The notes beneath the pieces are model-generated. The model did not search any database, was not told the origin of the DNA, and saw only the letters and a list, made by a program, of their open reading frames with translations. From positions 329,423 to 393,422 of the forward strand of contig MFRA01000005.1 in NCBI GenBank assembly GCA_001783215.1: a stretch of DNA of 64,000 bases, in the 5' to 3' direction. Position 1 is the stretch's first letter. Each line of letters starts with the position of its first letter. Source of the stretch: Candidatus Magasanikbacteria bacterium RIFOXYD1_FULL_40_23. GTDB lineage: Bacteria; Patescibacteriota; Patescibacteriia; Magasanikbacterales; GWA2-37-8. A program made the position numbers and the translations under genes. This document shows positions 1 through 62,636 of the stretch, in pieces.

Positions 1-14
1 CACAATCAAAGTCA

Positions 15-905
15 ATGACTCGAGCCGACGCCGGTTCTCTTTTGGAAGAAAAAATACCGGCCAAAACTTCGGGTGGCTTGGTTAGTTCCAAACGAGAGGG
101 TCAGGTAGAAGAAGTAATTAGAAAAATTGGTTTTGGAGTAGCTCCAGATTTGCAGGGTAGATTAAAAAGTTTAATTTTGGCTAGATTGAAAGATATAAAA
201 AGTGAAGATGAAACACGAGAGGTTCTTTCTAGAGCAACGAAAAACAGCGGCTTAGGTCTTTCTGATACTCAAGCAGATAAAATTATTAAAACTTGTAAAG
301 AAGTTTTGGCAGCCGAAAGTTCTTTGGTAAAAGAAAACAATGTTGATATCCCGGGATTAAAAGGAAAACCAAGTAGTATGTCTCTAATGGTAGAGCCACC
401 GGAATTGCCAATGGTAATTCCTGTAAAGGATAATTTTGCTACAAAAAATTCTACCCCAGTTTCGGCACCAATTAAGCCAGTAGGCAATAGTGTAGTTTCT
501 AAATTGATAAATGAAAGCATGGGTAATGAGCCGGTATTTAAGATTAGTACCAAGCCAGTAGTGAAATCAATGGTTCAAGACGTATCTGCTCCGCCAGATC
601 TAGAAATGGGACCAGTAGAAGAATTTAAATCCCTCACAATTGCAGAGTTTAGAAGACTGTCTAGCAATCCAGAAGAAGCCGCCAAAAGACTGCATCAAAA
701 AATGGTTAATTTACAGGAAGAATCTTTTGTGTGGTATCTGGATGCTGTGGCCGCATATCATAGTTCGCCGTTATATTTAGAGTATATGTTGGCAGTCAGC
801 CAGTCTTTAGCTGACAGAAAATCTTTGGCCAATGTACTTGCTGTGAAAAATGGTATAAAATTAAACGAAGTAATGGCAATAGTAGAAATGGAAAAGACGT
901 TGTAA
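15..905 (+). CDS. hypothetical protein (may be 5'-truncated by the window edge)
   Basis: 296-aa ORF with no recognisable motif; the in-frame sequence upstream of ATG at 15 has no stop, so the gene may start outside the window. Confidence 0.3.
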   Translation: MTRADAGSLLEEKIPAKTSGGLVSSKREGQVEEVIRKIGFGVAPDLQGRLKSLILARLKDIKSEDETREVLSRATKNSGLGLSDTQADKIIKTCKEVLAAESSLVKENNVDIPGLKGKPSSMSLMVEPPELPMVIPVKDNFATKNSTPVSAPIKPVGNSVVSKLINESMGNEPVFKISTKPVVKSMVQDVSAPPDLEMGPVEEFKSLTIAEFRRLSSNPEEAAKRLHQKMVNLQEESFVWYLDAVAAYHSSPLYLEYMLAVSQSLADRKSLANVLAVKNGIKLNEVMAIVEMEKTL

Positions 906-912
906 GGTAGCT

Positions 913-983
913 GTCATTCTGAGCAAAGCGAAGAATCCCTTTTGTTAGACGTAGAGGGATCCTTCACTCCGTTCAGGATGACA
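913..983. repeat. palindromic intergenic element family A, copy 1 (GTCATTCTGAGCAAAGCGAAGAATCCCT ... AGGGATCCTTCACTCCGTTCAGGATGAC)
   Basis: imperfect inverted-repeat arms of about 28 nt flank an 8-16-nt variable centre; five copies at 913, 1445, 6083, 7398, 9583. Confidence 0.8.
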
Positions 984-991
984 AAAACAAT

Positions 992-1417
992 ATGGAACAA
1001 TTTGTAGTGCCACAATTTATAGAAGTGGAAGATAAGATCTTTGGCCCTATTACCACCAGACAGTTTATTATTTTACTGGTAACTGGGTTGGTTTTATTTA
1101 TTATTTTTAAATTAGCCGACGTAACGTTATTTATTTTTCTAGCTGTGTTAATAGGCGGTTCGGCTGTGGTAGTGGCCTTTGTAAAAGTAAATGGCCAGCC
1201 ATTCCATTATTTTTTATTAAATATAGTGCAAACATTGCGCCGTCCAAGCAGAAGAGTGTGGTATAAGAGTTTTAGCAAGACTGAGCTGTCAGAGTCAATT
1301 AAGTCCGGAAAACTGGAGGTAGTCGAAGTAATAAAAGAAGTTCCGCGAATGTCTTATAGCAGAATCCGGGATCTATCACTTATAGTAAATACAGGAGGGT
1401 ATTACAAACCAGAGTAG
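992..1417 (+). CDS. PrgI-family-like small membrane protein (T4SS-associated)
   Basis: N-terminus VPQFIEVEDKIFGPITTRQF followed by two TM helices is the typical PrgI-family pattern; it lies just upstream of a VirB4-like ATPase. Confidence 0.45.
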   Translation: MEQFVVPQFIEVEDKIFGPITTRQFIILLVTGLVLFIIFKLADVTLFIFLAVLIGGSAVVVAFVKVNGQPFHYFLLNIVQTLRRPSRRVWYKSFSKTELSESIKSGKLEVVEVIKEVPRMSYSRIRDLSLIVNTGGYYKPE

Positions 1418-1444
1418 CGTCTTTTTTATAGAGTTTCGTAGTGT

Positions 1445-1514
1445 GTCATTCTGAGCAAAGCGAAGAATCCCTCTCGTTCGGGTGTAAGGGATCCTTCACT
1501 CCGTTCAGGATGAC
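1445..1514. repeat. palindromic intergenic element family A, copy 2
   Basis: near-identical to copy 1; lies between the PrgI-like gene and the next ORF. Confidence 0.8.
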
Positions 1515-1549
1515 AGTTGAAGCGAGTCTCATTTGCAATTATCAAAAAT

Positions 1550-2227
1550 ATGGAAGAAAAACCACAAAAAAAGAAAATATCAGTCCCAAGTGCTCAAAGC
1601 CATCTGCCTTTTGCCGAAATCAAATTTGATACGGCAATCATGAAAGATGGTACTTTGCGTGCTGTTCTTATGGTTTCTAGCATTAACTTTGCTTTGAAAA
1701 ATGAAGACGAGCAAAACGCCATTATTTCTTCCTATGTTTCTTTTTTAAACGGCATTGATTTTCCTTTGCAGATTGTGATTCAGTCTCGTCAGTTATATAT
1801 CAAACCGTACTTAGAAAAATTATTAAAAAAAGAGCGTGAACAAACCAACGAATTATTGCGAGTACAAATAGCGGACTATAGATCTTTCGTATCCGAGCTT
1901 GTTAGTCTGGGCAACATTATGAGTAAACAATTCTTTGTGGTTGTGCCTTTTGATCCGCTATCCAACAAAAAAAGAGGTTTTTGGTCCAGAATAAAAGAAG
2001 TTATAAACCCGGCGATAACTATTAAGCTTAAAGATGAGAGATTCCAGCAGCGGAAGCGTGATTTGGATATGAGAGTGCGACAGATACAATCTGGACTTGC
2101 AAGTATGAACTTGGAAGTAGTAAGACTAGATACACAATCGCTAATTGAGTTATTTTATTCTACATATAATCCTGATATTGCCTTTAGCGAACACTTGCCA
2201 TCGGTAAGTGAGTTAAGAGTGGAGTAA
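1550..2227 (+). CDS. hypothetical protein (T4SS-module associated)
   Basis: ORF in the same orientation between the PrgI-like and VirB4-like genes; the start was moved to ATG 1550 because the 1517 start overlaps repeat copy 2. Confidence 0.35.
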   Translation: MEEKPQKKKISVPSAQSHLPFAEIKFDTAIMKDGTLRAVLMVSSINFALKNEDEQNAIISSYVSFLNGIDFPLQIVIQSRQLYIKPYLEKLLKKEREQTNELLRVQIADYRSFVSELVSLGNIMSKQFFVVVPFDPLSNKKRGFWSRIKEVINPAITIKLKDERFQQRKRDLDMRVRQIQSGLASMNLEVVRLDTQSLIELFYSTYNPDIAFSEHLPSVSELRVE

Positions 2228-2251
2228 GCAAAGTTAACTTATATTTCGAAT

Positions 2252-4120
2252 ATGGCTTTTCAACCAAAATTTGCCGTTCCATCTTTCAAGAAAAAAGGGC
2301 CTTTATCCAGTAAGGAGATTGAGATTGCCAAAAAAGCAGGCGAGGAATTGATTACTCTGGAAGAAGAGAGGGTCTATCGCGAAGGCACGGTTTCCATAAA
2401 AGATCTGTTGGCGCCTTCGGCTTTTAATGTTGAATCTAATTTTATAAAGTTGGGCGACATATTTTGTCGTACTATATTTGTGGTAACTTATCCTAGATAT
2501 ATTTCTATTGGCTGGAGCTCTCCTGTGCTTAATCTTTCTATTACCATGGATGTGGGTATGTTTTTTTACCCTGTGCAAGCTCCTGTGATTTTGAAACAAT
2601 TAAGAAACAAAGTAGGTGCTTTGGAAGCCCAGTTAAATGCAGATTCAGAAAAGGGTGCGCCTCGCGATCCGGTGCGTGAAACCGCTTTGCGCGACATAGA
2701 GCAGCTGCGCGATGATCTTACCCAAGGCATTGAGCATTTTTTCCAGTTTTCTTTTTACGTAACTCTTTATGCCAAAACAAAAGAAGAGCTTGATCAAACT
2801 TCCGAAGATGTAGAAAACATTTTTGGTTCCAAACTTATTACCAGTCGTAAAGTTTTGTATCAAGCGGAACAAGGGTTTAATTCTACTCTGCCTTTGGCAA
2901 ATGATGAGCTGATGATATCTTTTAACCTGAACTCTTCGCCAATTGCTGCGTCTTTTCCATTTACTTCCGCAGAGCTTACTTCAGACGATGGTATTCTCTA
3001 TGGTGTAAACCGTCACAACAACAGCCTTATTTTATTTGATAGATTCTCTTTGCAAAACGCCAACATGGCAGTGTTTGCCACTTCTGGTGCTGGTAAAAGT
3101 TACGCTATCAAGTTAGAAATTTTGCGCAGTATGATGATGGGCGCAGATATTATTGTTATTGACCCGGAAATGGAATATAAACATTTGGCAGATGCTGTGG
3201 GTGGTACCTATATAAACATTTCTCTTTCTTCCGAAAGTAAAGTAAATCCTTTTGACTTGCCAAGACCAACTGGCGGACAAGATTTTTCTACAGAAGATAT
3301 AATTCGTGGCGCTGTTATAACTGTAAAAGGCTTGCTCCGTATCATGCTCGGCACGCTTACCACTGAGCAGGATTCTGTAATAGACCGCGCGCTGATAGAA
3401 ACCTATGCCAAAAAAGATATTACCCCTGAAGCAGATTTGGCTGTAGTGCAGCCACCGATAGTTCAAGATTTGCAAGAAATTCTAGAAGGCATGGAAGGTG
3501 CGGGTGATTTGGTTCTTCGATTAAAAAAATATACTGAAGGTACTTTTAGTGGTTTGTTTAACGCGCCTACCAATGTAAATATGAAAAATCAGTTGGTAGT
3601 ATTTAGTGTGCGCGATTTGGAAGACGAGCTGCGCCCTATGGCCATATATGCTATAGTTAACTATATATGGAATGTAGTAAGATCCGAACATAAGAAAAGA
3701 ATACTAGTCATCGATGAAGCCTGGTGGCTTATGCAACACGAAGACAGTGCCAGATTTATCTTTGCTTTGGTAAAACGCGCTCGTAAATATTATTTGGGTG
3801 TTACAACTATTACCCAAGATGTAAATGACTTTTTGAAATCTCAGTACGGACAGGCAATCGTGACCAACTCTGCTTTGCAAATGTTGTTGCGCCAATCACC
3901 GGCATCCATAGATTTGGTGCAGAAAATTTTCTTGCTTACCGAAGGCGAAAAATATTTACTCCTAGAGAGTGGAGTAGGGGAAGGGATATTTTTCGCCGGC
4001 AATAAGCATGCAGCCATTAAAGTGGTGGCTTCATATACCGAAGATCAGTTGGTAACCACCAATCCGGAGCAGATTTTGGAGATAGAAAAATCTAAGAAAG
4101 AGTTCGAAAAACAAGCATAA
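2252..4120 (+). CDS. virB4: VirB4/TrsE/PrgJ-type conjugative-transfer ATPase
   Basis: Walker A (VFATSGAGKSYAIK) and Walker B (ILVIDEAWWLM); N-terminal LAPSAFNVESNFIKLGDIFCRTIFVVTYPRYI is a VirB4-like block. Confidence 0.7.
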   Translation: MAFQPKFAVPSFKKKGPLSSKEIEIAKKAGEELITLEEERVYREGTVSIKDLLAPSAFNVESNFIKLGDIFCRTIFVVTYPRYISIGWSSPVLNLSITMDVGMFFYPVQAPVILKQLRNKVGALEAQLNADSEKGAPRDPVRETALRDIEQLRDDLTQGIEHFFQFSFYVTLYAKTKEELDQTSEDVENIFGSKLITSRKVLYQAEQGFNSTLPLANDELMISFNLNSSPIAASFPFTSAELTSDDGILYGVNRHNNSLILFDRFSLQNANMAVFATSGAGKSYAIKLEILRSMMMGADIIVIDPEMEYKHLADAVGGTYINISLSSESKVNPFDLPRPTGGQDFSTEDIIRGAVITVKGLLRIMLGTLTTEQDSVIDRALIETYAKKDITPEADLAVVQPPIVQDLQEILEGMEGAGDLVLRLKKYTEGTFSGLFNAPTNVNMKNQLVVFSVRDLEDELRPMAIYAIVNYIWNVVRSEHKKRILVIDEAWWLMQHEDSARFIFALVKRARKYYLGVTTITQDVNDFLKSQYGQAIVTNSALQMLLRQSPASIDLVQKIFLLTEGEKYLLLESGVGEGIFFAGNKHAAIKVVASYTEDQLVTTNPEQILEIEKSKKEFEKQA

Positions 4121-4143
4121 GTATATAATCTAACATTAATTGT

Positions 4144-4725
4144 ATGTCACTTCGCGTTCGCATTTTTATCATCGTCAGTGTTGTGGTGCTTTTGGTTTTA
4201 TCTGTAAGTATATTTTTGATAGTTAAAAATAAAAATAAAACTACAGACACTACTACAACCCCAGGCACAGACACAACTTTGCCTAGCACAAGTGGCGGTA
4301 CTCAGTCCGATGTCCAAGTATTAATCGACAAAGGTCTTCCGGCCAAAACACCTACCCCTTTGGAAGTTGAACAAAATGCAGTGGAGCAGTTAGCCAAGAT
4401 TTTTGTAGAGCGCTACGGTACTTATTCCACAGATAACGAATTTCAAAACATAAAAGAATCCCAGACTTTGGTTACCAAATCTTTATGGTCTAGAATTAGT
4501 GTGGGTATAAATGCAAAATCAACCAGTCAAGATTTTTTGGGTCTTACTACCAAAGTAATGAGTACCAGATTGGCTATTTGGGAAGATGCTCGCGCTACTG
4601 TAGAGATAAAAACTATGAGAACAGAAGATAAGGGCGGAGTTGTATCAACTCGTTATCAGAATGCCGCTGTAGGTATGGTAAAAGAAGACGGTGTATGGTT
4701 GGCCAATACATTGGTTTGGAATTAA
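4144..4725 (+). CDS. membrane-anchored protein with Thr-rich linker
   Basis: N-terminal TM helix followed by a TTDTTTTPGTDTT low-complexity linker and a globular C-terminus. Confidence 0.35.
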   Translation: MSLRVRIFIIVSVVVLLVLSVSIFLIVKNKNKTTDTTTTPGTDTTLPSTSGGTQSDVQVLIDKGLPAKTPTPLEVEQNAVEQLAKIFVERYGTYSTDNEFQNIKESQTLVTKSLWSRISVGINAKSTSQDFLGLTTKVMSTRLAIWEDARATVEIKTMRTEDKGGVVSTRYQNAAVGMVKEDGVWLANTLVWN

Positions 4726-4726
4726 C

Positions 4727-5374
4727 ATGTCTGGCAATGTGGTAGGTTGGTTGAAAGATTTATTGTTTCCCAAATTTTGTGTAAGTTGCAAGCAAGAAAG
4801 TGATTGGTTGTGCGAAACGTGTCTGCAAGCAATTTTAAATTTAAAAGACTATTCTTCTATAGATAACCAAGCCGTTTCTAATCTGGATAAGATAACGGCT
4901 TTGTTTGATTATGGAGAAAATACAGTATCAAAATTAATTCAGATGTTTAAGTACAACTATTTAATTGAGCTAGAAGATGTTTTTAGAAAGATGATATTTG
5001 CAAGCCGGCTAGATTTTATTATAAAAGATTTTGTTGTTATGCCTGTACCGCTTCATCCGCGCCGAGAGCGAGAAAGGGGCTTCAATCAATCAGAAATTTT
5101 AGCAAACCTATTTGCAGAAAAACTTGGGCTAGAAATAAATAAAGATTTGCACCGTGCCGTATATACCAAACAGCAAGCCAAGCTTTCTGGTGTTGCTAGG
5201 CGAGATAATTTAAAAGATGTTTTTGTGTTTCGCCAAATAGATAAAATAGTACCAGAAAAAGTTCTACTTATAGATGATGTATATACTACTGGTGCAACTA
5301 TGGAGGAGTGTGCCAAAGCGCTAAAAAGCGTTGGGGTAAAAGTTGTTTGGGGGTTGGTAATGGCCAGAGGATAG
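4727..5374 (+). CDS. comFC: ComF-family competence protein (phosphoribosyltransferase-like)
   Basis: N-terminal Cys cluster (CVSC...CETC) and C-terminal PRTase motif (LLIDDVYTTGATM); the start was set to ATG 4727, just after the previous stop. Confidence 0.65.
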   Translation: MSGNVVGWLKDLLFPKFCVSCKQESDWLCETCLQAILNLKDYSSIDNQAVSNLDKITALFDYGENTVSKLIQMFKYNYLIELEDVFRKMIFASRLDFIIKDFVVMPVPLHPRRERERGFNQSEILANLFAEKLGLEINKDLHRAVYTKQQAKLSGVARRDNLKDVFVFRQIDKIVPEKVLLIDDVYTTGATMEECAKALKSVGVKVVWGLVMARG

Positions 5375-5380
5375 GCCTTC

Positions 5381-5707
5381 CTATATAGGAAGCATGGCTC
5401 GGGCGTCTGGGTCCATCATATCTATTGTCCACATTGGGTTCCAGACCAAGTCTACTGTAACTTTTTTTATTTTAGGAAGCTTTGCCATTTCTTCTTTTAC
5501 TTGCTCAATTAGGCTGGCGCCAAACGGGCAGCCCATACTAGTAAAGGTCATGGTCACCATAGCGGTGGTATTTTTGATTTCTATATTATATACAAGTCCT
5601 AAATCTACAATACCCATACCTACTTCTGGATCAAAAATAGTATTGAGAATTTTCCAATATTCTTGGGTGCGTTGTTCGGGTGGGGTAGGGGTTATTTTTT
5701 TGCTCAT
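5381..5707 (-). CDS. DUF59/MIP18-family Fe-S cluster assembly protein (SufT-like)
   Basis: GMGIVDLGLVY...MTFTSMGCP motif characteristic of DUF59; it lies at the end of the suf operon. Confidence 0.55.
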   Translation of the reverse strand: MSKKITPTPPEQRTQEYWKILNTIFDPEVGMGIVDLGLVYNIEIKNTTAMVTMTFTSMGCPFGASLIEQVKEEMAKLPKIKKVTVDLVWNPMWTIDMMDPDARAMLPI

Positions 5708-5710
5708 ATA

Positions 5711-6067
5711 TTAGTGTAGATTTTTTTGTAATGCGTTGAGTCCTAGTAAAGCGCATTTGGTTCGTCCGGGGCTTATAGTTATTCCCAGTAGATTGTATAT
5801 ATCTTTTGGTTTTAGTTTTTTTAATACAGAGATTTTTTTGCCTTCTACATAATCTGCTAGCATAGACATAGAAGCTTGGCTTATAGCGCAACCATTGCCT
5901 ACAAAACCAATTTCTTCCACTGTGTCTTTATTTATTTTTAAATCAAGACGAATAACATCTCCGCAAAGTGGATTGTGTTCGGTGGTGCTAATTGTAGGTT
6001 TGCCAAGCGCACCCGCATGATGTGGGTGTTGATAGTGATCAAGAATTGTTTCGGTATATATGTCCAT
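5711..6067 (-). CDS. sufU: SufU/IscU-like Fe-S scaffold
   Basis: NifU N-terminal domain motifs LCGD...GNGCAISQAS. Confidence 0.75.
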   Translation of the reverse strand: MDIYTETILDHYQHPHHAGALGKPTISTTEHNPLCGDVIRLDLKINKDTVEEIGFVGNGCAISQASMSMLADYVEGKKISVLKKLKPKDIYNLLGITISPGRTKCALLGLNALQKNLH

Positions 6068-6082
6068 AAGTAATTGGTAGTT

Positions 6083-6150
6083 GTCATCCTGAACGCAGTG
6101 AAGGATCCCTTAAGCCATGAGAGGGATTCATTCGCTCTGCTCAGAATGAC
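6083..6150. repeat. palindromic intergenic element family A, copy 3 (inverted orientation)
   Basis: GTCATCCTGAACGCAGTGAAGGATCCCT ... AGGGATTCATTCGCTCTGCTCAGAATGAC between sufU and sufS. Confidence 0.75.
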
Positions 6151-6165
6151 AACCTGTATTTATAA

Positions 6166-7383
6166 TTATAGTTTAAATATTTTCAATACTTTTTTTAAAG
6201 CTATTTCGACTGTGTCTATATCTTTTTTTGTATTATAAATATAAAAGCTCAATCGCGCGGTGCCATTTGGTGCGCCTAGTTTTTGTAAAAGCGGTTCGGC
6301 GCAATGTAGTCCGGAGCGAATAGCTATGCCGTGGTCGTTAAATATAGTAGCAATGTCGTGCGGGTGTACGCCGTCTATAGCAAAAGATAATACTGCTCCA
6401 GTGTCTTGTGGTTTAGATGGAGAGAAAACTTTTACTTGCGGGTAGCGTGCCAACATCTTTTTTGCGTAAGCGAGCAGTTCTTTGTCGTGATCGGCAATAT
6501 TTTTTAAGCCAATTTTGTTTATATAATCTATGGCTGCACCATATGCAACTACGCCTGCAATGTTTGGCGTACCAGCCTCAAATTTCCAGTGGCCAGTGCG
6601 GTAGGTAGCAGATTTTTCTTGTACAGATTCTATCATTTCGCCACCATACATAAATGGCGTCATTTCGTTCATCAAGTCGCTTCTTATATATAGCACTCCT
6701 ACGCCGGTTGGGCCCATCATTTTGTGGGCAGAAAAAGCAAAGAAATCACAACCAAGACTGGTTAAGTTGGTAGGCGTGTGTCCCACGCTTTGTGCGCCAT
6801 CCACCATTACTTTTGCGCCTACTATATGTGCCATTTCTACTATTTTTTTAACAGGCGTAATTGTGCCAGTTACATTGGATTGAGCGGTAACACAAACCAA
6901 TTTTGTTTTTGCAGAAAGAAGTTTTTGGTAAGCGTCTGTGTCCAAAATATAATTTGCAGTTAGAGGGATAATTTTTAAAATAGCCTTTTTATTTTTGGCC
7001 AATTCTTGCCACGGTACCAAGTTGGCATGATGTTCTAGAGCGCTAACAATTATCTCGTCTCCGGCATTAATATGTTTTTGTCCCCAAGCTACCGCTACGC
7101 AGTTTATAGATTCGGTAGCGCTTTTGGTAAAGATTATTTCTTCTTCTGTGGCGCCAATAAATTTGGCAACTTTTTTTCTTACTTCTTCGTACTTATCAGT
7201 AGCTTCTTCGGATATGGTGTGTATGCCACGATGAATATTGGCGTTAGAGGTAGAATAAAAATCTACCAGTGCCTTTAGTACTGTTTTTGGTTTTTGGGTG
7301 GTGGAGGCGTTATCTAAATAGATTAGCGCTTTGCCATTAATTTTTCTTTTGAGAATAGGGAAGTCTGATTTGATGTTTTGCAT
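6166..7383 (-). CDS. sufS: cysteine desulfurase SufS
   Basis: 405-aa class V aminotransferase; N-terminus LIYLDNASTTQKP; SAHKMMGPTG PLP-lysine region; C-terminal RSGLHCAEP. Confidence 0.85.
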   Translation of the reverse strand: MQNIKSDFPILKRKINGKALIYLDNASTTQKPKTVLKALVDFYSTSNANIHRGIHTISEEATDKYEEVRKKVAKFIGATEEEIIFTKSATESINCVAVAWGQKHINAGDEIIVSALEHHANLVPWQELAKNKKAILKIIPLTANYILDTDAYQKLLSAKTKLVCVTAQSNVTGTITPVKKIVEMAHIVGAKVMVDGAQSVGHTPTNLTSLGCDFFAFSAHKMMGPTGVGVLYIRSDLMNEMTPFMYGGEMIESVQEKSATYRTGHWKFEAGTPNIAGVVAYGAAIDYINKIGLKNIADHDKELLAYAKKMLARYPQVKVFSPSKPQDTGAVLSFAIDGVHPHDIATIFNDHGIAIRSGLHCAEPLLQKLGAPNGTARLSFYIYNTKKDIDTVEIALKKVLKIFKL

Positions 7384-7397
7384 ATGTATTATTGATT

Positions 7398-7476
7398 GTC
7401 ATCCCGAGCGAGGTTTTTGGCCGACGAGGGATCTATACTTTAATGAGTAGATTCCTCACGCAAGGTTCGGAATGAC
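7398..7476. repeat. palindromic intergenic element, divergent subfamily of family A, copy 4
   Basis: arms GTCATCCCGAGCGAGG...GGGATC and GATTCCTCACGC...GGAATGAC between sufS and sufD. Confidence 0.6.
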
Positions 7477-7478
7477 AG

Positions 7479-8150
7479 TTATGAAAGAAAATTTTTAACC
7501 GATGTACGAATTATTTCGGCTATTTTTTCATTTTGTATATTCATTATTTCTGATTCAAAAAATCCTTGTACTAGCAGTGCTCGTGCTTGTGTTTCGTCTA
7601 AGCCGCGAGAAAGTAAATAAAATAAAGCCTCTTCGTCTATTTTTCCTACGCTAGCGCTATGACCGGCTTTTATATCATCTGTTTTTATTTCTAGATTTGG
7701 TGATGTTTTGGCCTTGGCTTCATCGGACAAAAGTAGGGTGTGATGAGAAAAATAGGCATTGGCGCCTTTGGCAGTCTTTTCTATTTTCCAATCGCCTTCA
7801 ATATGGCAGGTTGCCTGATCTGTTAGACCAGCTCTTATTCTGGCTCTGATTTGTGTGTTCGGTGCTCCGTGAATAGCCTCTATTTTTGCTGAGTAAGAAA
7901 AATTATTTTTTCCTAAGATGAAAATTATACAATCGCATTTGGCGCCACGTTCTTTGGCGTTTATAATAAATTTGCGTGAATCTTCCCAGCCTTCGGTAAT
8001 TAAACAAATCAAAGTTAAATCAGCATTTTTTTTCAAAGTTATTTTACCATCGGGAATGGTGTCCAAAAAACAGAGCGCCTTTTTGTTTGCGCCAACCACC
8101 AAAACTTTTTTAAATTTTGTGATAGTTTTTGTTTGTGACATACTATCCAA
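7479..8150 (-). CDS. sufD: SufD-like Fe-S assembly protein (short form)
   Basis: C-terminal SufBD block ...[12 protein letters not shown]; only 223 aa, i.e. lacking most of the N-terminal domain. Confidence 0.6.
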
Positions 8151-9561
8151 CTGAACCAGTCATTTCTAATGCCAAAAGACGGTTTAGTTCTACCGCATAT
8201 TCCATCGGCAGTTGTCGTACAATCGGACTGGCAAAACCATTTACAATAAGCGTGGCTGCCTGCTCTTCGGAAAGTCCACGGCTCATCAGATAAAATAATT
8301 CATCTTCACCAATACTGGCCACAGTAGCTTCGTGAGCAATGGCGACGTCTTTTTCTTTTATATCCATAGTAGGGTAGGTGTCCGAGCGAGAAGCAGGATC
8401 AAGCATTAGAGCATCGCAAACTACGCGAGTTTTTACATTCTTGGCGCCTTTGATTACTTTTACTAAACCGCGATAGGTGGTGCGACCACCGTTTTTGCTA
8501 ATGGATTTAGAAACAATAGTAGAGCTGGTATCTGGGGCTAAGTGAATTACCTTGCCGCCAGCATCTTGGTGTTGTCCTTTGGAGGCAAAAGCTAGAGATT
8601 GAATTTCTCCTTTGGCGCCACGTTCACGCAAAATAATACTAGGGTATTTCATTGTTGCTTTGGAGCCAAGGTTGCAGTCCAGCCAAAACATTTCGGCGTT
8701 CTCAAAGGCAGAAGCACGCTTGGTAACCAGATTATAAACATTGCCAGACCAGTTTTGGATAGTGGTATATTGGACACGTGCGCCTTTTTTTACCACTATT
8801 TCTACTACCGCCGAGTGGAGTGAATCACTGGAGTAGGTGGGTGCGGTACAGCCCTCTACATAGTGCACAGAGCTGCCTTCGTCGGCAATGATAAGTGTGC
8901 GTTCAAATTGACCCATGTTTTCTATGTTTATGCGGAAGTAGGCTTGTAATGGCAATTCTATATGTACGCCTTTTGGTACATAGATAAAACTTCCACCAGA
9001 CCAGACTGCCGAGTTGAGGGCAGAGAATTTATTGTCGTGTGCGGGTACTACAGTACCAAAATATTTTTTAAATAATCCCGGATGGTTTTTTAAGGCGTCA
9101 TCGGTGGATTCAAAAATTACGCCTTTTTTGGCTAGTTCTTTGGCTAGAGAATGATAAACCATTTCGGATTCAAATTGAGCGCCGCTGCCAGATAAAAATT
9201 TTTGTTCCGCTTGTGGTACGCCTAGTTTATCAAAAGTATTTTTAATTTCTGCGGGTACGTCTTCCCATTTGCGTTTGGTTTTATCTTGCGGGCGAACGTA
9301 GTAGTGAATATTATCAAAATCAATGCCGGACAAATCTGCACCCCAATTCGGCATATGCTTTTCCAAAAATACCTCGTAAGCCTTTAAGCGAAAATCAAGC
9401 ATCCATTCTGGTTCGGATTTTTGGCGGGACAGATCGCGGATCACTTCTTCGTTTAAACCTTTTTTGGAAGTAAAGACACTATTTGTTTTGGTACGAAAAT
9501 TAGAGGCGGATTTATTGCCAGTCTTGTTTATTATTTTTTTTGTTTTTGTAGGGATTGCCAT
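8143..9561 (-). CDS. sufB: Fe-S cluster assembly protein SufB
   Basis: 472 aa with SufB conserved blocks ([20 protein letters not shown]...); overlaps sufD by 8 nt. Confidence 0.85.
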
Positions 9562-9582
9562 AAGTTTAAAATTACCTCAATT

Positions 9583-9653
9583 GTCATTCTGAGAGAAACG
9601 AAGAATCCCTTAAGCTTAAAACGAGAGGGATCCTTCATTGTATTCAGGATGAC
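9583..9653. repeat. palindromic intergenic element family A, copy 5
   Basis: GTCATTCTGAGAGAAACGAAGAATCCCT ... AGGGATCCTTCATTGTATTCAGGATGAC between sufB and sufC. Confidence 0.75.
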
Positions 9654-9672
9654 AGTGAAGGTAAGTATTTGT

Positions 9673-10434
9673 TTATTTTTTCTTTATAAATGATCCAAAA
9701 CCATTCTTTTCTATCTTTTTCAAAATTTCTGAACCGCCTTGAGCGACGATTTTACCTTTGGACATAATATGAATTTTGTCTGGCTTGATGAAGTCCAAGA
9801 TGCGAGGGTTGTGACTTACAATTACTAGTCCCATGCCTTGCTTGGCATGGATCTCATTTATTTGTTTGCTCACAATTTTTAGAGCATCTATATCCAATCC
9901 AGAATCAATTTCATCTAAGAAAGCAAAAGCAGGTTGTAAAATCGCCATCTGTAAAACTTCTGATTTTTTCTTTTCTCCACCAGAAAATCCATCGTTTACG
10001 GAGCGAGAAATAAAAGCAGGGTCTATCTTTAATTTTTCCATTTCTTCACGCATAGTGGCAGCAAAAGCAACTGGTGCAATAGCTGGTGTTTTGTCTTTTT
10101 TAGAAGCGGAAATAGTATTTTTGGCTATGCGTAAAAAGTTACCCAATGGTACGCCAACCACCACTTGTGGGTGTTGGAATCCCAAAAATAATCCAGCCTG
10201 CGCGCGTTGGGTAGGAGTTAGCTTTAGGATATCTTTCTTGTCTAACGAAGCCGAACCCATAGTAACGGTATATTTTGGACTACCCATAAGCACAGAAAGT
10301 AGAGTGCTTTTACCAGAGCCGTTTTGACCCATAATTATATGGATTTCACCGGAAGATACGCTTAAAGAAACACCGTTTAATATTTTGGTATTGCCAATAG
10401 TGGCGTGTAAGTTTTTTATGTTTAAAATAGGCAT
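9673..10434 (-). CDS. sufC: Fe-S assembly ATPase SufC
   Basis: ABC ATPase Walker A (GQNGSGKST), signature (FSGGEKK), Walker B (LDEIDSGLD). Confidence 0.85.
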   Translation of the reverse strand: MPILNIKNLHATIGNTKILNGVSLSVSSGEIHIIMGQNGSGKSTLLSVLMGSPKYTVTMGSASLDKKDILKLTPTQRAQAGLFLGFQHPQVVVGVPLGNFLRIAKNTISASKKDKTPAIAPVAFAATMREEMEKLKIDPAFISRSVNDGFSGGEKKKSEVLQMAILQPAFAFLDEIDSGLDIDALKIVSKQINEIHAKQGMGLVIVSHNPRILDFIKPDKIHIMSKGKIVAQGGSEILKKIEKNGFGSFIKKK

Positions 10435-10544
10435 AATTTTGTTTAATCAATAGCTATACTACAGCGAAAAACCCTCTTGGTCAATGCCAGAAGATACAAA
10501 AAATCCCGCCAGAAAGGAGGGATTTTTGTGGTTTGTTATAAGGA

Positions 10545-10958
10545 CTATTCGGTAACTTTGAGGGTGCCCCATTGTCCGCCAGCTCTGTGGCCAGGTTTGG
10601 AGCAGTAATATACGAATTCTCCGGCTTTATCGGCTGTAAATTCGATTGTTACTTCTTCATTTAGAGGCAATTCTTTAGCTACTGCAAATTCGTCTATTAC
10701 GAAGTCGTGCATTCCTAGAGTGTTGGTTACTTTAATTTTTACTTTATCTCCCTTTTTTACATTCATTTCTGGGATAGAGTATATAGGTTTCTTTAGAGCT
10801 GGGTCATAGTAGGCGGTCATGGTGAATTCTTTTACGGCTTGAACGGACGCAGTTTCTGGAGCGGTGTTTGTAGGGGCGCTTGCTTGTTTGGATTTCCACA
10901 TAAACAAACCTCCCACGACTACGACTGCTACTAATGCTGGGACCAATAATTTACGCAT
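10545..10958 (-). CDS. cupredoxin-like (plastocyanin/azurin family) secreted protein
   Basis: signal/TM N-terminus; type-1 copper-site-like motifs MHDF...YYCSKPGHRAGGQWG. Confidence 0.5.
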   Translation of the reverse strand: MRKLLVPALVAVVVVGGLFMWKSKQASAPTNTAPETASVQAVKEFTMTAYYDPALKKPIYSIPEMNVKKGDKVKIKVTNTLGMHDFVIDEFAVAKELPLNEEVTIEFTADKAGEFVYYCSKPGHRAGGQWGTLKVTE

Positions 10959-10988
10959 ACAATTTTTATTATTTAATTAATGTTTATA

Positions 10989-11246
10989 TTATATCATTGA
11001 TTTTTCTTTTTGCAATATTTTCTTTTTTTGTTCTGTTCCGCCGCGGTTGTATCCACCCATTTTGCCATCGGATCGTATTACGCGGTGGCAGGGGATATCT
11101 GGGTTATAGTTTTTCTTTAAAGCCGAGCCCACAGCTCTGGCCGCATCTGGCTTACCAATTTTTGTAGCCACTTGTTTGTAGGTAAGAGTTTTTCCTTTGG
11201 GAATTTTTTTCACAACATTATAAACTTTTTGTTGGAACGTCAGCAT
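10989..11246 (-). CDS. MGMT-family DNA-binding domain protein (stand-alone Ogt C-terminal-like domain)
   Basis: active-site motif IPCHRVIRSDG with a helix-turn-wing preceding it; only 85 aa. Confidence 0.6.
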   Translation of the reverse strand: MLTFQQKVYNVVKKIPKGKTLTYKQVATKIGKPDAARAVGSALKKNYNPDIPCHRVIRSDGKMGGYNRGGTEQKKKILQKEKSMI

Positions 11247-14257: not shown

Positions 14258-14265
14258 TGTTTAAT

Positions 14266-14303
14266 GCGGAGAGGGAGGGATTCGGCTTCGATTAAAATTT
14301 TGT
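14266..14303 (-). repeat. tRNA-Ser 3'-end-like fragment (att-like direct repeat, copy 2) just after the LigT stop
   Basis: minus-strand reading AATCGAAGCCGAATCCCTCCCTCTCCGC matches the 3' 15-17 nt of the tRNA at 15242-15326. Confidence 0.6.
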
Positions 14304-14858
14304 CTAGTTAGTTCCAAATTTTATATCCATTACTTTATGCCACGATTTAGCCCCATCATTTTTCTGATAAATTCGAATCGAATTAACTTCAAACGCAGGT
14401 AAATTTTTCAGTTCTCGCCTTGCTTTTTCCACCATCTCTAGCGTATCTTCTTTGGTGAGGCCCCACTTTATAGCTCCTAGAGTCAGGTGTGGATGGTATT
14501 CATTATTTTCAAAATATTTTTTTGCTGGATCTTTGTAGTATGGCCCAACTGCACTAAATAAGGTTTTATGAAGATTGATAAGTTCTTGAGAAAAAGCCGG
14601 TTTAAGGAAAATGACATTTTCGTCAAAATTTCCTACTCCTTCAAAAGAGATTTGAAATTTACTAAAACCATTTATTGCTGATTCTATTTTAGGTAGCCAC
14701 AACTTATCTTCTGTTAGTCCTCCCGTGGATTTCACTGTGATATGTGGCTCGACAAGATTAGGTACGTCATTATTAAGGAAGTTTCTTTGGAAAGAAATAA
14801 TTTTTTCACTTATTGTTTCTGGTGGTGTGATTCCTATAAAAAATTGCATAAGTTCCAA
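14304..14858 (-). CDS. 2H phosphoesterase superfamily protein (LigT/ThpR-like RNA 2',3'-cyclic phosphodiesterase)
   Basis: two H-x-T-x motifs (HITV, HLTL) with the appropriate spacing; 184 aa. Confidence 0.6.
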   Translation of the reverse strand: MELMQFFIGITPPETISEKIISFQRNFLNNDVPNLVEPHITVKSTGGLTEDKLWLPKIESAINGFSKFQISFEGVGNFDENVIFLKPAFSQELINLHKTLFSAVGPYYKDPAKKYFENNEYHPHLTLGAIKWGLTKEDTLEMVEKARRELKNLPAFEVNSIRIYQKNDGAKSWHKVMDIKFGTN

Positions 14859-14862
14859 TTTT

Positions 14863-14901
14863 GGCGGAGAGGGAGGGGTTCGGCTTCGACTAAAATTTTT
14901 T
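14863..14901 (-). repeat. tRNA-Ser 3'-end-like fragment (att-like direct repeat, copy 1) just after the GIY-YIG #1 stop
   Basis: minus-strand reading TAGTCGAAGCCGAACCCCTCCCTCTCCGCC, compared with the tRNA 3' end GGTTCGAATCCCTCCCTCTCCGCC. Confidence 0.6.
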
Positions 14902-15132
14902 ATCCAAATGTTTTTTTAAAAAAGCTCTGCCAGAACCAGATTTTAAATATTTTTCAAATTCAAATGCTGTGTATTTATCTTTGAATGCGAAGTAGGCTGT
15001 AAGTTCAACTGGTAAGCGCTTAGCTGTGGCTGGTACTTGGCCTTTTTGATGTCTAGCCATACGTTCTTTTAAATCGGATGTACAGCCAGAATAAAAACCG
15101 TCTTTGCATTTTAATATATAAACATAGTGCAT
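14890..15132 (-). CDS. small GIY-YIG nuclease-family protein (YhbQ/UPF0213-like), copy 1
   Basis: HYVYILKCKDGFYSGCTSDLKERMARHQ contains the GIY-YIG motifs and aligns with E. coli YhbQ; 80 aa. Confidence 0.7.
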   Translation of the reverse strand: MHYVYILKCKDGFYSGCTSDLKERMARHQKGQVPATAKRLPVELTAYFAFKDKYTAFEFEKYLKSGSGRAFLKKHLDKKF

Positions 15133-15241
15133 AAGCGGATTTTATCACGCCGAAGCTTCATCTTTGATAATTCGCATGAACCAAGTATTATGAAAAACTT
15201 AGAACTCGCCTCTGCCCTAAAGGGCTACGGCGAAGCGAAGG

Positions 15242-15326
15242 CGGAGAGGGAGGGATTCGAACCCTCGGTGCCTTGCGGCACACAGCTTTAGCAAAGCTGC
15301 ACAATCGACCACTCTGACACCTCTCC
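15242..15326 (-). tRNA. tRNA-Ser (anticodon GCU by hand fold), type II with long variable arm
   Basis: 7-bp acceptor GGAGAGG/CCTCTCC; anticodon stem CAGCT/AGCTG with loop TTGCTAA; variable arm GTGCC-GCAA-GGCAC; T-arm GAGGG-TTCGAAT-CCCTC; CC but no A encoded. Confidence 0.7.
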
Positions 15327-15362
15327 AGGTGTTGTCGTTTTATAATAAATCTTTTTAATTTT

Positions 15363-15764
15363 TTATTCGTATTGGCTCAGCATTTCTTCTAGTTCACGGG
15401 CCTCCCTCGCTTCTTTTTCTGCTTCAGTTTCGGTGGGTGTTTCAGTTAGCATTTTATTTTTAACTTCTGCAAAGAGTGCATCTACCTCTGTTTCAAGTAT
15501 CACGCCGCCTTGTTTGGCAATACTGCGCACACTATCTAGGCCGTAACCGTCTCTAATTCTTTTTTCCAAATGACCAAGGGCGAATGTCTTTACCTCTGTT
15601 TCCGGCGCGCCTAATTTTAAAAGCTCTCGAACTAAATCACCGCCATGTTCGGTATTTTTGCATGCCTGAGCATATTCTGGTCTTTGGGTAATATTTTTTT
15701 GTTCTGCGGTTTCTGTCGGATTCATTAGTTCCGCTTCTGTTGGGCCAGGTCCTTGCTCGGGCAT
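15363..15764 (-). CDS. hypothetical acidic protein
   Basis: 133-aa ORF with Glu-rich termini and no recognisable motif; sits between the two tRNA/GIY-YIG units. Confidence 0.35.
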   Translation of the reverse strand: MPEQGPGPTEAELMNPTETAEQKNITQRPEYAQACKNTEHGGDLVRELLKLGAPETEVKTFALGHLEKRIRDGYGLDSVRSIAKQGGVILETEVDALFAEVKNKMLTETPTETEAEKEAREARELEEMLSQYE

Positions 15765-15831
15765 ATTGGTATGAACAGTTGTTTAAACTAATTTGAAGTA
15801 TAGCACTGGTGGGTGAGCGGTGACAATTTGT

Positions 15832-15856
15832 CTGGAGAGATATGATTCGGCTTCGA
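15832..15856 (-). repeat. degenerate tRNA 3'-end-like fragment (att-like, copy 3), matching the 3' end of the second tRNA
   Basis: minus-strand reading TCGAAGCCGAATCATATCTCTCCAG, compared with the tRNA at 16209-16295 3' end TCGAATCTCTATCTCTCCGCC. Confidence 0.5.
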
Positions 15857-16099
15857 CTAAAATTTTTTATCCAAATGTTTTTTTAAAAAAGCTCTACCAG
15901 AACCAGATTTTAAATATTTTTCAAATTCAAATGCAACGTATTTATCTTTGAATGCGAAATAGGCTGTAAGTTCTAGTGGTCGGCGATTGATTGTGGCGGG
16001 AACCTGGCCTTTCTGATGTCTTGATATGCGTTCTTTTAGGTCTGAGGTGCAACCAGAATAAAAACCGTCTTTGCATTTTAATATATAAACATAGTGCAT
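15857..16099 (-). CDS. small GIY-YIG nuclease-family protein (YhbQ-like), copy 2
   Basis: 80 aa, identical to copy 1 at both ends but diverged in the centre (ERISRHQKGQVPATINRRPLEL vs ERMARHQKGQVPATAKRLPVEL). Confidence 0.7.
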   Translation of the reverse strand: MHYVYILKCKDGFYSGCTSDLKERISRHQKGQVPATINRRPLELTAYFAFKDKYVAFEFEKYLKSGSGRAFLKKHLDKKF

Positions 16100-16208
16100 A
16101 AGCGGATTTTATCACGCCGAAGCTTCATCTTTGATAATTCGCATGAACCAAGTATTATGAAAAACTTAGAACTCGCCTCTGCCCTAAAGGGCTACGGCGA
16201 AGCGAAGG

Positions 16209-16295
16209 CGGAGAGATAGAGATTCGAACTCTAGAGGCCCTTTCGAGCCCGGCAGTTTAGTAAACTGCTGCCTTAAACCACTCGGCCATCTCTCC
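16209..16295 (-). tRNA. type II tRNA (Ser-like); anticodon reads ACU in my hand fold, which is atypical
   Basis: acceptor GGAGAGA/TCTCTCC; D-arm GCC-GAGTGGTTTAA-GGC; anticodon stem GCAGT/ACTGC with loop TTACTAA; long variable arm; T-arm TAGAG-TTCGAAT-CTCTA. Confidence 0.6.
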
Positions 16296-40005: not shown

Positions 40006-40035
40006 AGTTTTAATACTATCTAAAATCAGTTTATA

Positions 40036-43339: not shown

Positions 43340-43354
43340 TTATCATACTTTATA

Positions 43355-43465
43355 GGGGCTAAAGCCCATATATTCTCATTCACTCAGAAATATCCAGATT
43401 CGGTATTTATAATTCGCAAGCAATTATAAATACCTCACCGGCTATTTCACTCACTCATTTCGAAT
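43355..43465 (+). promoter_or_regulatory. conserved hairpin+leader cassette (family B), copy B
   Basis: GGGGCTAAAGCCC + ATATATTCTCATTCACTC ... TTTCACTCACTCATTTCGAATATG. Confidence 0.65.
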
Positions 43466-44467
43466 ATGAAAGTTGGAATTATTGGCGCGGGGCTTATTGG
43501 GACAAAAAGAGCGGAAGTTATATATAATTTAAAAAAAGACAAACTAGTCTCTGTTTTTGATATTGATTTTAGTAAGAGTGAGCAGCTAACTGCAAAATTC
43601 GGAGGAAAGGCTGTAAAAAGTAAAGACGATATTTTTAAAGATAAAAGCATAGATACAGTAATTATCGCTACCTGGAATAATGTTTTGGCAAAGTTATGTT
43701 TGGAAGCTATAAAAAACAACAAAAATGTTTTGTGCGAAAAACCCCTTGGCATAAATTACGAGGAGGCAAAGAAAATTTATTCGGCGGCAAAAAAGAAAGG
43801 CGTAACACTTAAAGCTGGATTTAATCATCGTTTTCACGGTTCGGTATGGAAAGCGCATCAGCTTGTAAAAAGTGGAGCCATCGGCGATCTTATGTATATG
43901 CGCGCAGTATATGGGCATGGAGGAAGAAAGGGCTATGATTTAGAATGGAGAAGAAATAAAAAAATCTCTGGTGGGGGAGAGCTATTGGAAAAAGGTGTAC
44001 ACTTGCTAGACTTATTCCGCTGGTTTATGGGTGAGTTCAAAGAAGGGGTGGCCTTTTGTGAGAACATGTTTTGGGATAGGACAAAACTAGAGGATAATGC
44101 CTTTTGTACCCTGCGTACACGCGATGGTAAGGTAGCTCAAATGCAGGTAAGTATTACTCAGTGGAAGAACAAGTTTAATATTGACATCTTTGGCAAGAAA
44201 GGCTATGTTAGCGTAGAGGGAAAAGGAGGCAGTTATGGTCCGGAAAAGCTAGTAATCGGCAGAAGAAAAGAGTTGGGAGTTAAGCCAATTGAAGAAGAAT
44301 TTTTGTTTGACAAAGATACTTCTTGGGAAGAGGAATGGAAAAATTTTAGCACAGCTGTGGCAAAAAAGATTGAGCCAATCGGTAGTGGCTATGACGGCAT
44401 GATGACAAATAAATTGGTAGCAGGTTTATACGCTTCGTCTAAAAATAGAAAAATTATTAATTTTTAA
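43466..44467 (+). CDS. Gfo/Idh/MocA-family NAD(P)-dependent oxidoreductase
   Basis: MKVGIIGAGLIG ... EKP ... family layout. Confidence 0.7.
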   Translation: MKVGIIGAGLIGTKRAEVIYNLKKDKLVSVFDIDFSKSEQLTAKFGGKAVKSKDDIFKDKSIDTVIIATWNNVLAKLCLEAIKNNKNVLCEKPLGINYEEAKKIYSAAKKKGVTLKAGFNHRFHGSVWKAHQLVKSGAIGDLMYMRAVYGHGGRKGYDLEWRRNKKISGGGELLEKGVHLLDLFRWFMGEFKEGVAFCENMFWDRTKLEDNAFCTLRTRDGKVAQMQVSITQWKNKFNIDIFGKKGYVSVEGKGGSYGPEKLVIGRRKELGVKPIEEEFLFDKDTSWEEEWKNFSTAVAKKIEPIGSGYDGMMTNKLVAGLYASSKNRKIINF

Positions 44468-62509: not shown

Positions 62510-62636
62510 ATTCGAAATGAGTGAGTGAAATAGCTAGTGAGATATTTATAATCGCTTGCGAGTTATAAATATTGAATCTGGATATTTTTGAGCGAATGAG
62601 TATATATGCGGCGCAGCCCATATAATAAAATGGGCG
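62510..62636 (-). promoter_or_regulatory. conserved hairpin+leader cassette (family B), copy F on the minus strand
   Basis: the reverse complement reads GGGCTGCGCCGC + ATATATACTCATTCGCTC ... TTTCACTCACTCATTTCGAATATG, about 85% identical to copy B. Confidence 0.65.

Follow-up and report, generated by a model that had tools for sequence, protein, structure and literature searches.

What are the five palindromic elements of about 70 nucleotides (nt) that occupy short gaps between genes in a 64,000-nt stretch of the genome of Candidatus Magasanikbacteria bacterium RIFOXYD1_FULL_40_23 (contig MFRA01000005.1; the whole stretch is called the window here), and with which molecular system are they associated? 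A reading made from the nucleotides and their open reading frames (ORFs), referred to as the sequence-only reading, had likened them to repetitive extragenic palindromic (REP) sequences or miniature inverted-repeat transposable elements (MITEs), and had preferred a role at the RNA level. Our results suggest that each element is probably a gene-less inverted doublet of an Ssn-related motif (SRM), that is, of a CGTC/TGTC-tagged REP hairpin predicted to be the single-stranded DNA (ssDNA) site of a small GIY-YIG nuclease of the Ssn type. Judged from their sequence, the elements are a new subfamily of the SRM or CGTC-tagged REP kind, and one that the published search pattern misses.

All five copies proposed by the sequence-only reading were recovered (912-983, 1444-1515, 6082-6151, 7397-7477, and 9582-9654), and an end pattern, GTCATYC-N40-70-GRATGAC, matched five times in the window compared with 0.00 expected from 100 shuffles. 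Looser scans identified no further copies in the remaining 54 kb, in agreement with that reading. Pfam and the gene calls of identical public contigs concur with it on the five operon-internal junctions that are occupied, ORF|PrgI, PrgI|TraC-like, sufU|sufS, sufS|sufD, and sufB|sufC (the window sequence is also present in GCA_001783315.1, Candidatus Magasanikbacteria RIFOXYD2_FULL_39_9, and on 300-434 kb contigs of other data sets). Doublet 1 (912-983), between an ORF at 15-905 and PrgI (992-1417), comprises arm A (912-937, sense on the + strand, TGTCATTCTGAGCAAAGCGAAGAATC), a centre (938-957) with an inner CCT/AGG stem and a 14-nt spacer, and arm B (958-983, sense on the - strand, TGTCATCCTGAACGGAGTGAAGGATC). 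Doublet 2 (1444-1515) has the same arms (A, 1444-1469, +; B, 1490-1515, -) around another spacer and lies between PrgI and the TraC-like gene (1517-2227). The copy previously described as inverted, doublet 3 (6082-6151), has the opposite arm order (B, 6082-6107, +; A, 6125-6151, -, with a 1-nt insertion in A), reads A then B on the transcribed strand, and separates sufU (5711-6067, -) from sufS (6166-7383, -). Doublet 4 (7397-7477), between sufS and sufD (7479-8150, -), does represent a divergent subfamily with ATYCC/GGRAT arms; its first arm (7397-7433, +) carries a long tip hairpin, GGTTTTTGGCC, and is followed by a second arm at 7450-7477 (-). Doublet 5 (9582-9654; A, 9582-9607, +; B, 9629-9654, -) lies between sufB (8143-9561, -) and sufC (9673-10434, -) and reads B then A on the transcribed strand.

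Folding of these elements predicted hairpins of -29 to -39 kcal/mol, far more stable than those of shuffled sequences (z of -3.8 to -8). As had been proposed, they are not canonical terminators: direct reading of the flanks found no T-run after any window copy, and none of 18 terminator-like sites in window positions 1-11000 coincides with an element. At gathering score, Rfam returned only two tRNAs in the window and no match to the elements, and permissive thresholds gave only sub-threshold miRNA-like hairpin matches for copies 1 and 2. A literature search by sequence strings matched only unrelated primers.

Each window copy is an inverted pair of a 25-36-nt module with its tags pointing outward. 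The sequence-only reading had described the arms as imperfectly complementary; the mismatch is real (ATTCT..AGAAT in one arm and ATCCT..AGGAT in the other, with a G-C or an A-T tip stem), but it does not represent decay, as the arms are two variants of one module. When viral contigs were scanned with a single arm as the pattern, at least 120 contigs matched, and an inverted partner within 220 nt was recognisable for only 41 of 151 modules, which indicates that the conserved unit is the single module. Covariation leads to the same conclusion: among 147 unique instances, positions 6/22 were T-A in 92 and C-G in 54 (T-G in one, C-A in none) and positions 11/17 were G-C in 124 and A-T in 19, and because these covarying pairs sit within one arm, the module rather than a long palindrome is what is conserved. 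A scan with loose anchors recovered 660 instances in 2.43 Mb, of which 613 were complementary at all three free stem pairs (shuffle mean 378, maximum 392). A third compensatory change, T8-A20 to C8-G20, corresponds to the subfamily of window copy 4. In this loose-anchor set, all four combinations of the covarying stem pairs were common, which argues against simple clonal linkage.

The conserved module of 25-27 nt can be outlined as T-GTCATYCTGARCGNAGYGAAGRATC-T/C-C, and the flanks beyond it hold no information. It consists of an unpaired T/C-GTC tag, a hairpin (AT-Y-C-Y / R-G-R-AT) with its tip, and then a C; the stem runs through A-T, T-A, Y-R, C-G, and Y-R pairs, two tandem G·A pairs, and R-Y and C-G pairs to a G-N-A loop. 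The tip is usually GCGNAGC, and many copies have a longer, self-complementary hairpin instead. The four bases before the palindrome were TGTC in 391, CGTC in 41, and something else in 33 instances (n = 465). When left free, the base after the palindrome was C in 617 of 625 instances, a figure that is partly circular for seed copies, and GTC and C occurred together in 459 of 472, also partly circular because the fetch patterns fixed them in at least one copy. Module pairs were tags-outward in 163 cases and tags-inward in 17, so that a doublet places one sense module on each DNA strand, and 347 of 673 sampled modules lay outside a recognised doublet. A rule that doublets are heterodimers was rejected, as 51 hetero- and 35 homodimers outside the pattern-biased set are about the random expectation. 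Readings of the module as a hammerhead, K-turn, attC, or dif element were dropped by inspection (core motifs misfit, Rfam empty).

The candidate partner of the module was identified by a motif scan of all fetched loci, which found five GIY-YIG ORFs of 93-102 amino acids (aa), each 0-37 nt from a module. All five of these module-sampled genes (L129, L155, L228, L261, and L274) are bracketed in the order sense module, gene, antisense module. In L274, for example, a module ending in GAAGAATCCCT precedes the gene, which is followed by one extending from AGGGATCC to GGATGACA; this is the A/B doublet of the window with a gene in place of the 14-nt spacer. Homologues from candidate phyla radiation (CPR) bacteria, the group to which the source organism belongs, that were sampled by protein were likewise module-bracketed in four of four cases (L384-L387): one from Magasanikbacteria in a dnaK..dnaJ region (L384), one from Liptonbacteria at cox1|cox3 with copy-4-type arms and a second GIY-YIG gene before cox4 (L386), one from Absconditicoccaceae adjoining comEC (L387), and a fourth on a 400-kb contig. 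A Planktothrix plasmid (L383) carries a gene annotated in RefSeq as "GIY-YIG nuclease family protein" among ten modules, between an MmeI-type enzyme and the DISARM gene drmA. In total, 11 of 11 examined loci had a 93-102-aa GIY-YIG gene between modules. Cassettes of this kind occupy conserved-operon junctions or a defence island (L378, L383, L384, L386, and L387), which suggests insertion as a unit.

The bracketed proteins have a Pfam GIY-YIG domain only. At 48% identity (E 1e-16), the CPR protein resembles a 94-aa protein of Neisseria gonorrhoeae that carries Y6, Y17, and E64, which are the positions altered by mutation in the work on SsnA, and that is surrounded by 10 copies of the NTS repeat in 3.2 kb, and Y17 and E64 occupy the same positions in the CPR protein and its gonococcal orthologue. 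In these features the gonococcal protein matches SsnA as described (Chenal et al. 2025, PMC11893778). SsnA, known from N. meningitidis (cd10448), is a 94-aa single-domain GIY-YIG nuclease that acts on ssDNA only, and on the sense strand only, does not bind RNA, and both binds and cuts the NTS, a longer Neisseria repeat (CGTCATTCCCGCGMAVGCGGGAATCYRG), with the cut a few nucleotides upstream; binding depends most on the C that follows the palindrome, and cleavage on the three bases that precede the palindrome (PMC11893778). In addition, ssnA genes are typically flanked by their own SRM, and SsnA reduces transformation by NTS-bearing DNA (PMC11893778). The (T/C)GTC before an AT-initiated stem and the C after it in the present module are these published SsnA determinants, hence the assignment as an SRM. 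Other tblastn matches came from Azospirillum, Novosphingobium, Sphingobium, and Sinorhizobium, which are genera with reported CGTC REPs (PMC3733652). In viral contigs, Ssn relatives are accompanied by YGTCAT-tagged hairpins of their own, which have CCA tails, and not by the present module; the finding of other hairpins beside the closest of these relatives fits co-evolving pairs of nuclease and motif.

The source genome itself contains such a cassette. A search with the L274 protein identified a 73% identical protein (P0167), named as an endonuclease of Magasanikbacteria RIFOXYD2_FULL_39_9 and encoded on the same longest contig as the SufS of the window; P0167 and the window are found together in GCA_001783315.1, ERZ4902915, and 3300025152. 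The gene sits between carA and carB (L378). From the left, the order is the carA stop codon, TGTCATTCTGAGCAAAGCGAAGAATCCCT (which equals the left arm of doublets 1 and 2), and the ssn-like frame; directly after the ssn stop follows an antisense B arm, split by a 26-nt insertion, and beyond it a complete doublet whose arms both match those of doublets 1 and 2 exactly. This arm identity spans 26-29 nt, and the spacers of the three doublets differ. Further module copies occur in the 20-kb carA|carB region, so the repeat family is not confined to the window. One of these copies, a doublet of 99 nt (33 codons) whose right arm bears an insertion, is situated apparently in frame within tgt, which encodes queuine tRNA-ribosyltransferase (L378, a contig other than that of the window, 6968-7066), and recalls the Rickettsia palindromic elements found inside genes.

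The likeness of the module to the SRM and NTS extends from the hairpin to its genomic setting. Both are oriented hairpins in which an unpaired (C/T)GTC tag directly precedes AT and the palindrome is immediately followed by C (CGTC-ATTCCCGC-GMAV-GCGGGAAT-C in the NTS; TGTC-ATTCTGAGC-GNA-GCGAAGAAT-C in the present module), both are intergenic and form a repeat-ssn-repeat arrangement around a GIY-YIG gene of about 94 aa, and both bracket other genes as well. The module differs in its two tandem G·A pairs, in its 3-nt GNA loop or long tip hairpin, and in its tail (CYC/CCT, not CCA or YRG). Its hosts include CPR bacteria and phage-like contigs, which were unreported in the earlier study, itself based on RefSeq representatives (PMC11893778). 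The CGTC-tagged REP superfamily, which includes Neisseria dRS3 and Rickettsia RPE-4/-6 (Di Nocera et al. 2013, PMC3733652), has an unpaired CGTC (or CCTC) tag "changed to TGTC in many repeats", stems of 8-9 Watson-Crick pairs that start with two A-T pairs, 4-5-nt loops, and a short, mostly CCA tail of 3 nt; its members are mostly inverted dimers, often heterodimers, between unidirectional or convergent ORFs, with occasional in-frame copies and no linked transposase (PMC3733652). The module shares the type of tag, the two first A-T pairs, the short unpaired tail, the inverted dimers, the ORF settings, an in-frame copy, and the lack of a known linked transposase. It differs in having nine stem positions of which two are G·A, a 3-nt loop (5 nt without the closing C-G), and a C-T/C-C tail. 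A BLAST search with the module consensus matched no alphaproteobacterial CGTC repeats, which, unless the module coincides with CGTC-2, -3, or -4, points to a separate family. The commonest module tip is exactly the d(GCGNAGC) DNA mini-hairpin of Hirao and colleagues, with two G-C pairs and a sheared G·A pair, which is exceptionally heat-stable and nuclease-resistant (review PMC13037366); earlier work on it concerned isolated oligonucleotides and phage origins, whereas here it caps a longer tagged stem and is often replaced.

Modules were found in at least 120 viral contigs and at least 120 genome stretches from many phyla. Hosts among the matches listed include Nitrospirota, Acidobacteriota, Chloroflexota, Gemmatimonadota, Bacteroidota, Planctomycetota, Verrucomicrobiota, and Omnitrophota, as well as Clostridia, several classes of Proteobacteria, Saccharibacteria, and Gracilibacteria (metagenome-assembled genomes and isolates). 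Cultured plasmids of Planktothrix, Calothrix, and Phocaeicola also carry the module, and records of cultured phages contain essentially none. With the pattern of the A/B-CCCT subfamily, 76 metagenome stretches were obtained, including many groundwater contigs; full doublets like those of the window account for about 50 of them, and chance matches for the others. Many of the viral contigs (IMG/VR, L007-L126) belong to one phage clade, in which modules immediately precede the ribosome-binding site and ATG of genes for structural proteins, and in one viral contig (L099, 9434-9750) modules follow one another head to tail, without spacers, every 30-33 nt. When the ORFs neighbouring 305 modules were clustered, the result comprised common enzymes and the structural genes of a single phage clade and nothing else, so that no recurrent neighbours other than phage structural genes emerged; the small GIY-YIG genes were missed because of the 70-aa and E-value cut-offs. 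Modules are mostly intergenic and tend to be missing from regions of divergent promoters, with 40 convergent compared to 10 divergent settings (P = 2e-5), and the orientation of solo modules relative to genes is unbiased in co-directional settings (31 versus 26) and in genomes (35 versus 35). In a GC-skew strand test, solo modules lay on the locally C-rich strand in 109 versus 31 cases in viral contigs, with no bias in bacterial genomes (40 versus 30); this replication-strand test was not used as evidence, as it is strong only for solo modules in viral contigs.

A comparison of orthologous loci in four related Magasanikbacteria (SufS 77-89% identical) showed that the element is gained and lost between related species. 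The sufS|sufU junction measures 98 nt in the window and 1-2 nt in three relatives; sufD|sufS is filled in the window and in one relative (with other arms and another orientation) and is 4 nt long in two relatives; and sufC|sufB is filled in the window and in one relative (L249, copy-4 subfamily) and is empty in L248 and L250. Overall, the orthologous suf and type IV secretion system (T4SS)-like junctions in relatives are empty, with gaps of 1-4 nt, or contain unrelated hairpins. Unrelated palindromic inserts were observed, for example, at sufD|sufS and sufS|sufU in L250 and at sufB|sufD in L248. Unrelated palindromes at the same junctions (L247-L250) indicate recurrent landing sites for several hairpin families. 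Accordingly, the REP/MITE-like character first ascribed to the element holds, in that the palindrome is non-coding and dispersed, has been gained and lost among relatives, and has copies outside the window in the same genome. The preference for operon junctions is real as well, but it is common to the nuclease cassette (carA|carB, dnaK..dnaJ, and cox1|cox3) and may reflect where insertions survive in a compact genome.

If the elements are SRM doublets, a cognate Ssn would recognise or cut the doublet-marked DNA around PrgI, sufS, and sufBD once uptake, transfer, replication, or a similar process exposes either strand as ssDNA. A tags-outward doublet would offer one recognisable module per strand, so that either strand could be recognised when single-stranded, and doublets bracketing PrgI, sufS, and sufD-sufB may act like an NTS-gene-NTS arrangement. 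The doublets most likely arose as internal-deletion derivatives of a module-ssn-module cassette that lost its gene. One end of the spacer is GT(G/T)TA|AGGG in 19 of 78 cases, resembling the last codons and stop of ssn, a likeness that is suggestive only of an origin of doublets from the cassette. Any effect of the transcribed hairpins on operon mRNAs would be a side effect. A further-reaching proposal is that the cassette is an active, horizontally spreading mobile element that inserts into operon junctions across phyla, including CPR bacteria and phages, and that Ssn mobilises gene-less doublets in trans; we consider this a tentative idea, and rather doubtful at present. To our knowledge, no strand-transfer activity is known for Ssn. 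Were the proposal true, the cassette would be a system like that of REPINs and REP-associated tyrosine transposases (RAYTs) with an unrelated enzyme, mostly missed by the published SRM pattern.

Linking the doublets to Ssn would tie an abundant cross-phylum hairpin repeat, which Rfam, the SRM pattern, and string searches all miss, to a nuclease family described in 2025, and would extend the Ssn system to ultra-small CPR bacteria and phage-like contigs. A cassette in operon junctions together with gene-less doublets of identical arms in one genome is the type of evidence needed for testing the mobility of Ssn cassettes. With its tag, tandem G·A pairs, and mini-hairpin, the module also gives enzymologists a new, sharply defined candidate site of ssDNA recognition. 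In genome annotation, it accounts for many spurious small ORFs and for oddly long gaps in CPR operons that are otherwise tightly coupled.

Several points weigh against reading the elements as SRM doublets with a cognate nuclease. Recognition of the module by such a nuclease is predicted from homology and synteny, and the nearest ssn-type gene lies outside the window. The published SRM pattern, HGTCWYN(0-2)YYVSBRHN(0-5)WNVSBRGN(0-2)RNCYNB, derived from 29 genomes (PMC11893778), matched none of 517 unique modules and no window site, whereas NTS and NTSvar do match; nonetheless, the pattern is a search tool and not a functional definition. Nearest-neighbour folding predicted a long inter-arm hairpin rather than two arm hairpins in 136 of 140 doublets, using models unable to assess G·A pairs or mini-hairpins. 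There is partial circularity in some conservation figures, given that the sampled loci were fetched with patterns that fix parts of the module. The A-then-B order is co-directional with genes in 16:3 cases (P = 0.004), a bias that could stem from the way the cassette was oriented or from a constraint at the level of transcription. Finally, the ssn frame of the source genome has ACG where relatives have ATG in all four assemblies (L378-L381; L378, 9962-10003), and its first ATG comes after the GIY tyrosine, with gene callers reporting an 86-aa product. With this start, the source nuclease may be weakly made, may be binding-only, may lack the first catalytic tyrosine, or may be decaying.

The start-codon change also underlies an alternative, namely, that the doublets are inert relics of past ssn-cassette activity on which, given that change, nothing in the genome acts any longer. 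Sequence wear is consistent with this: the arms of copies 3, 4, and 5 contain indels and substitutions, and both the right arm beside ssn and the arm inside tgt are split by insertions of 26-30 nt. We nonetheless consider relics unlikely. That copies 1 and 2 and the ssn-adjacent doublet share identical arms around differing spacers points to recent spread or to constrained arms. Apart from its start, the ssn frame is intact, with 73% identity to an intact relative, and translation could still begin at ACG or at the internal ATG.

It is quite improbable that the suf and T4SS-like operons retain the copies because they need them as functional RNA elements for processing, 3'-end stabilisation, or translational coupling, the kind of roles that the sequence-only reading had preferred. 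Copies inside apparent operons would be transcribed, their RNA hairpins are very stable, and REPs of Escherichia coli, which stabilise upstream mRNA, offer a precedent. The A-then-B bias relative to flanking genes agrees with such a role, as does the 3' end of arm B (CAGGAUGACA), which provides an AGGA 8-20 nt before several start codons. An element on which these operons depend is nonetheless hard to reconcile with the empty or differently filled junctions of the relatives, with the unbiased orientation of solo modules, or with the copy in frame inside tgt. G·T pairs and A·C mismatches occur about equally often in the stems of the loose-anchor set, so that G·U is not enriched over A·C, and no Rfam family matches. 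Moreover, the conserved tag and 3' C are determinants of an enzyme that acts on ssDNA only and does not bind RNA (PMC11893778).

Two kinds of transposition remain to be weighed against the SRM doublet. In the REPIN-RAYT system, as reportedly described by Bertels and Rainey in 2011, inverted REP hairpins with a spacer are associated with a single-copy enzyme gene flanked by the same repeats, and the present elements resemble it and the bacterial interspersed mosaic elements of E. coli in the inverted hairpin pair with its spacer, the flanked enzyme gene, the predicted recognition of ssDNA hairpins, the lack of target-site duplications, the extragenic location, and the scarcity of copies between divergent genes. 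Mobilisation of the elements as REPINs by a RAYT (a Y1 HUH transposase), as for the GTAG REPs of Pseudomonas and E. coli, is still very improbable: the tag is TGTC/CGTC and not GTAG, the gene bracketed by modules encodes a GIY-YIG nuclease rather than a Y1 HUH transposase, and no Y1-transposase-like ORF was found in 2.1 Mb around modules with probes of limited sensitivity. A classical MITE, i.e., insertion sequence ends (terminal inverted repeats) mobilised by a DDE transposase, would account for the TG...CA termini, inverted ends of about 28 bp, short variable centre, and presence/absence polymorphism, but is hardly tenable in view of the covariation within each arm, the many modules outside recognised doublets, the lack of a transposase between distant arm pairs, and target-site duplications at the exact ends of only 3 of 138 doublets (about 6.5 by chance; not above a shuffled-partner control), which refutes a pure MITE with such duplications. 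Distant convergent arm pairs were also considered as insertion sequence ends and rejected, as only phage structural genes lie between them.

The window contains GIY-YIG genes of its own. Two 91% identical cassettes (14263-16295) each encode an 80-aa GIY-YIG protein (14890-15132 and 15857-16099, -), with tRNA genes upstream of these genes (15242-15326 and 16209-16295) and partial copies of tRNA 3' ends after the cassettes (14861-14899 and 15831-15866, with a third copy at 14263-14301). They look like integrative or homing cassettes that target tRNA 3' ends. These proteins, which represent a different, shorter GIY-YIG subfamily, share 33% identity with the Ssn-like proteins, and UPF0213 (1zg2) is the PDB entry that matches them best. 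They were rejected as the partner nuclease on account of this low identity and UPF0213-like character, the lack of flanking modules, and their occurrence in only this species among approximately 320 loci.

A second repeat family was observed in a region of repeated glycosyltransferase-like sequence. Its unit is a leader of about 126 nt that carries the hairpin TATAGGGGCTAAAGCCCATATA and stops at an ATG start codon; the copies share 87% identity and are located at 43350-43475 (+) and 62500-62625 (-), with partial ones near 40024, 44483, and 55813. Hairpins like those of this second family fill two junctions in the relatives, VirB4|TraC in L247 and TraC|PrgI in L249.

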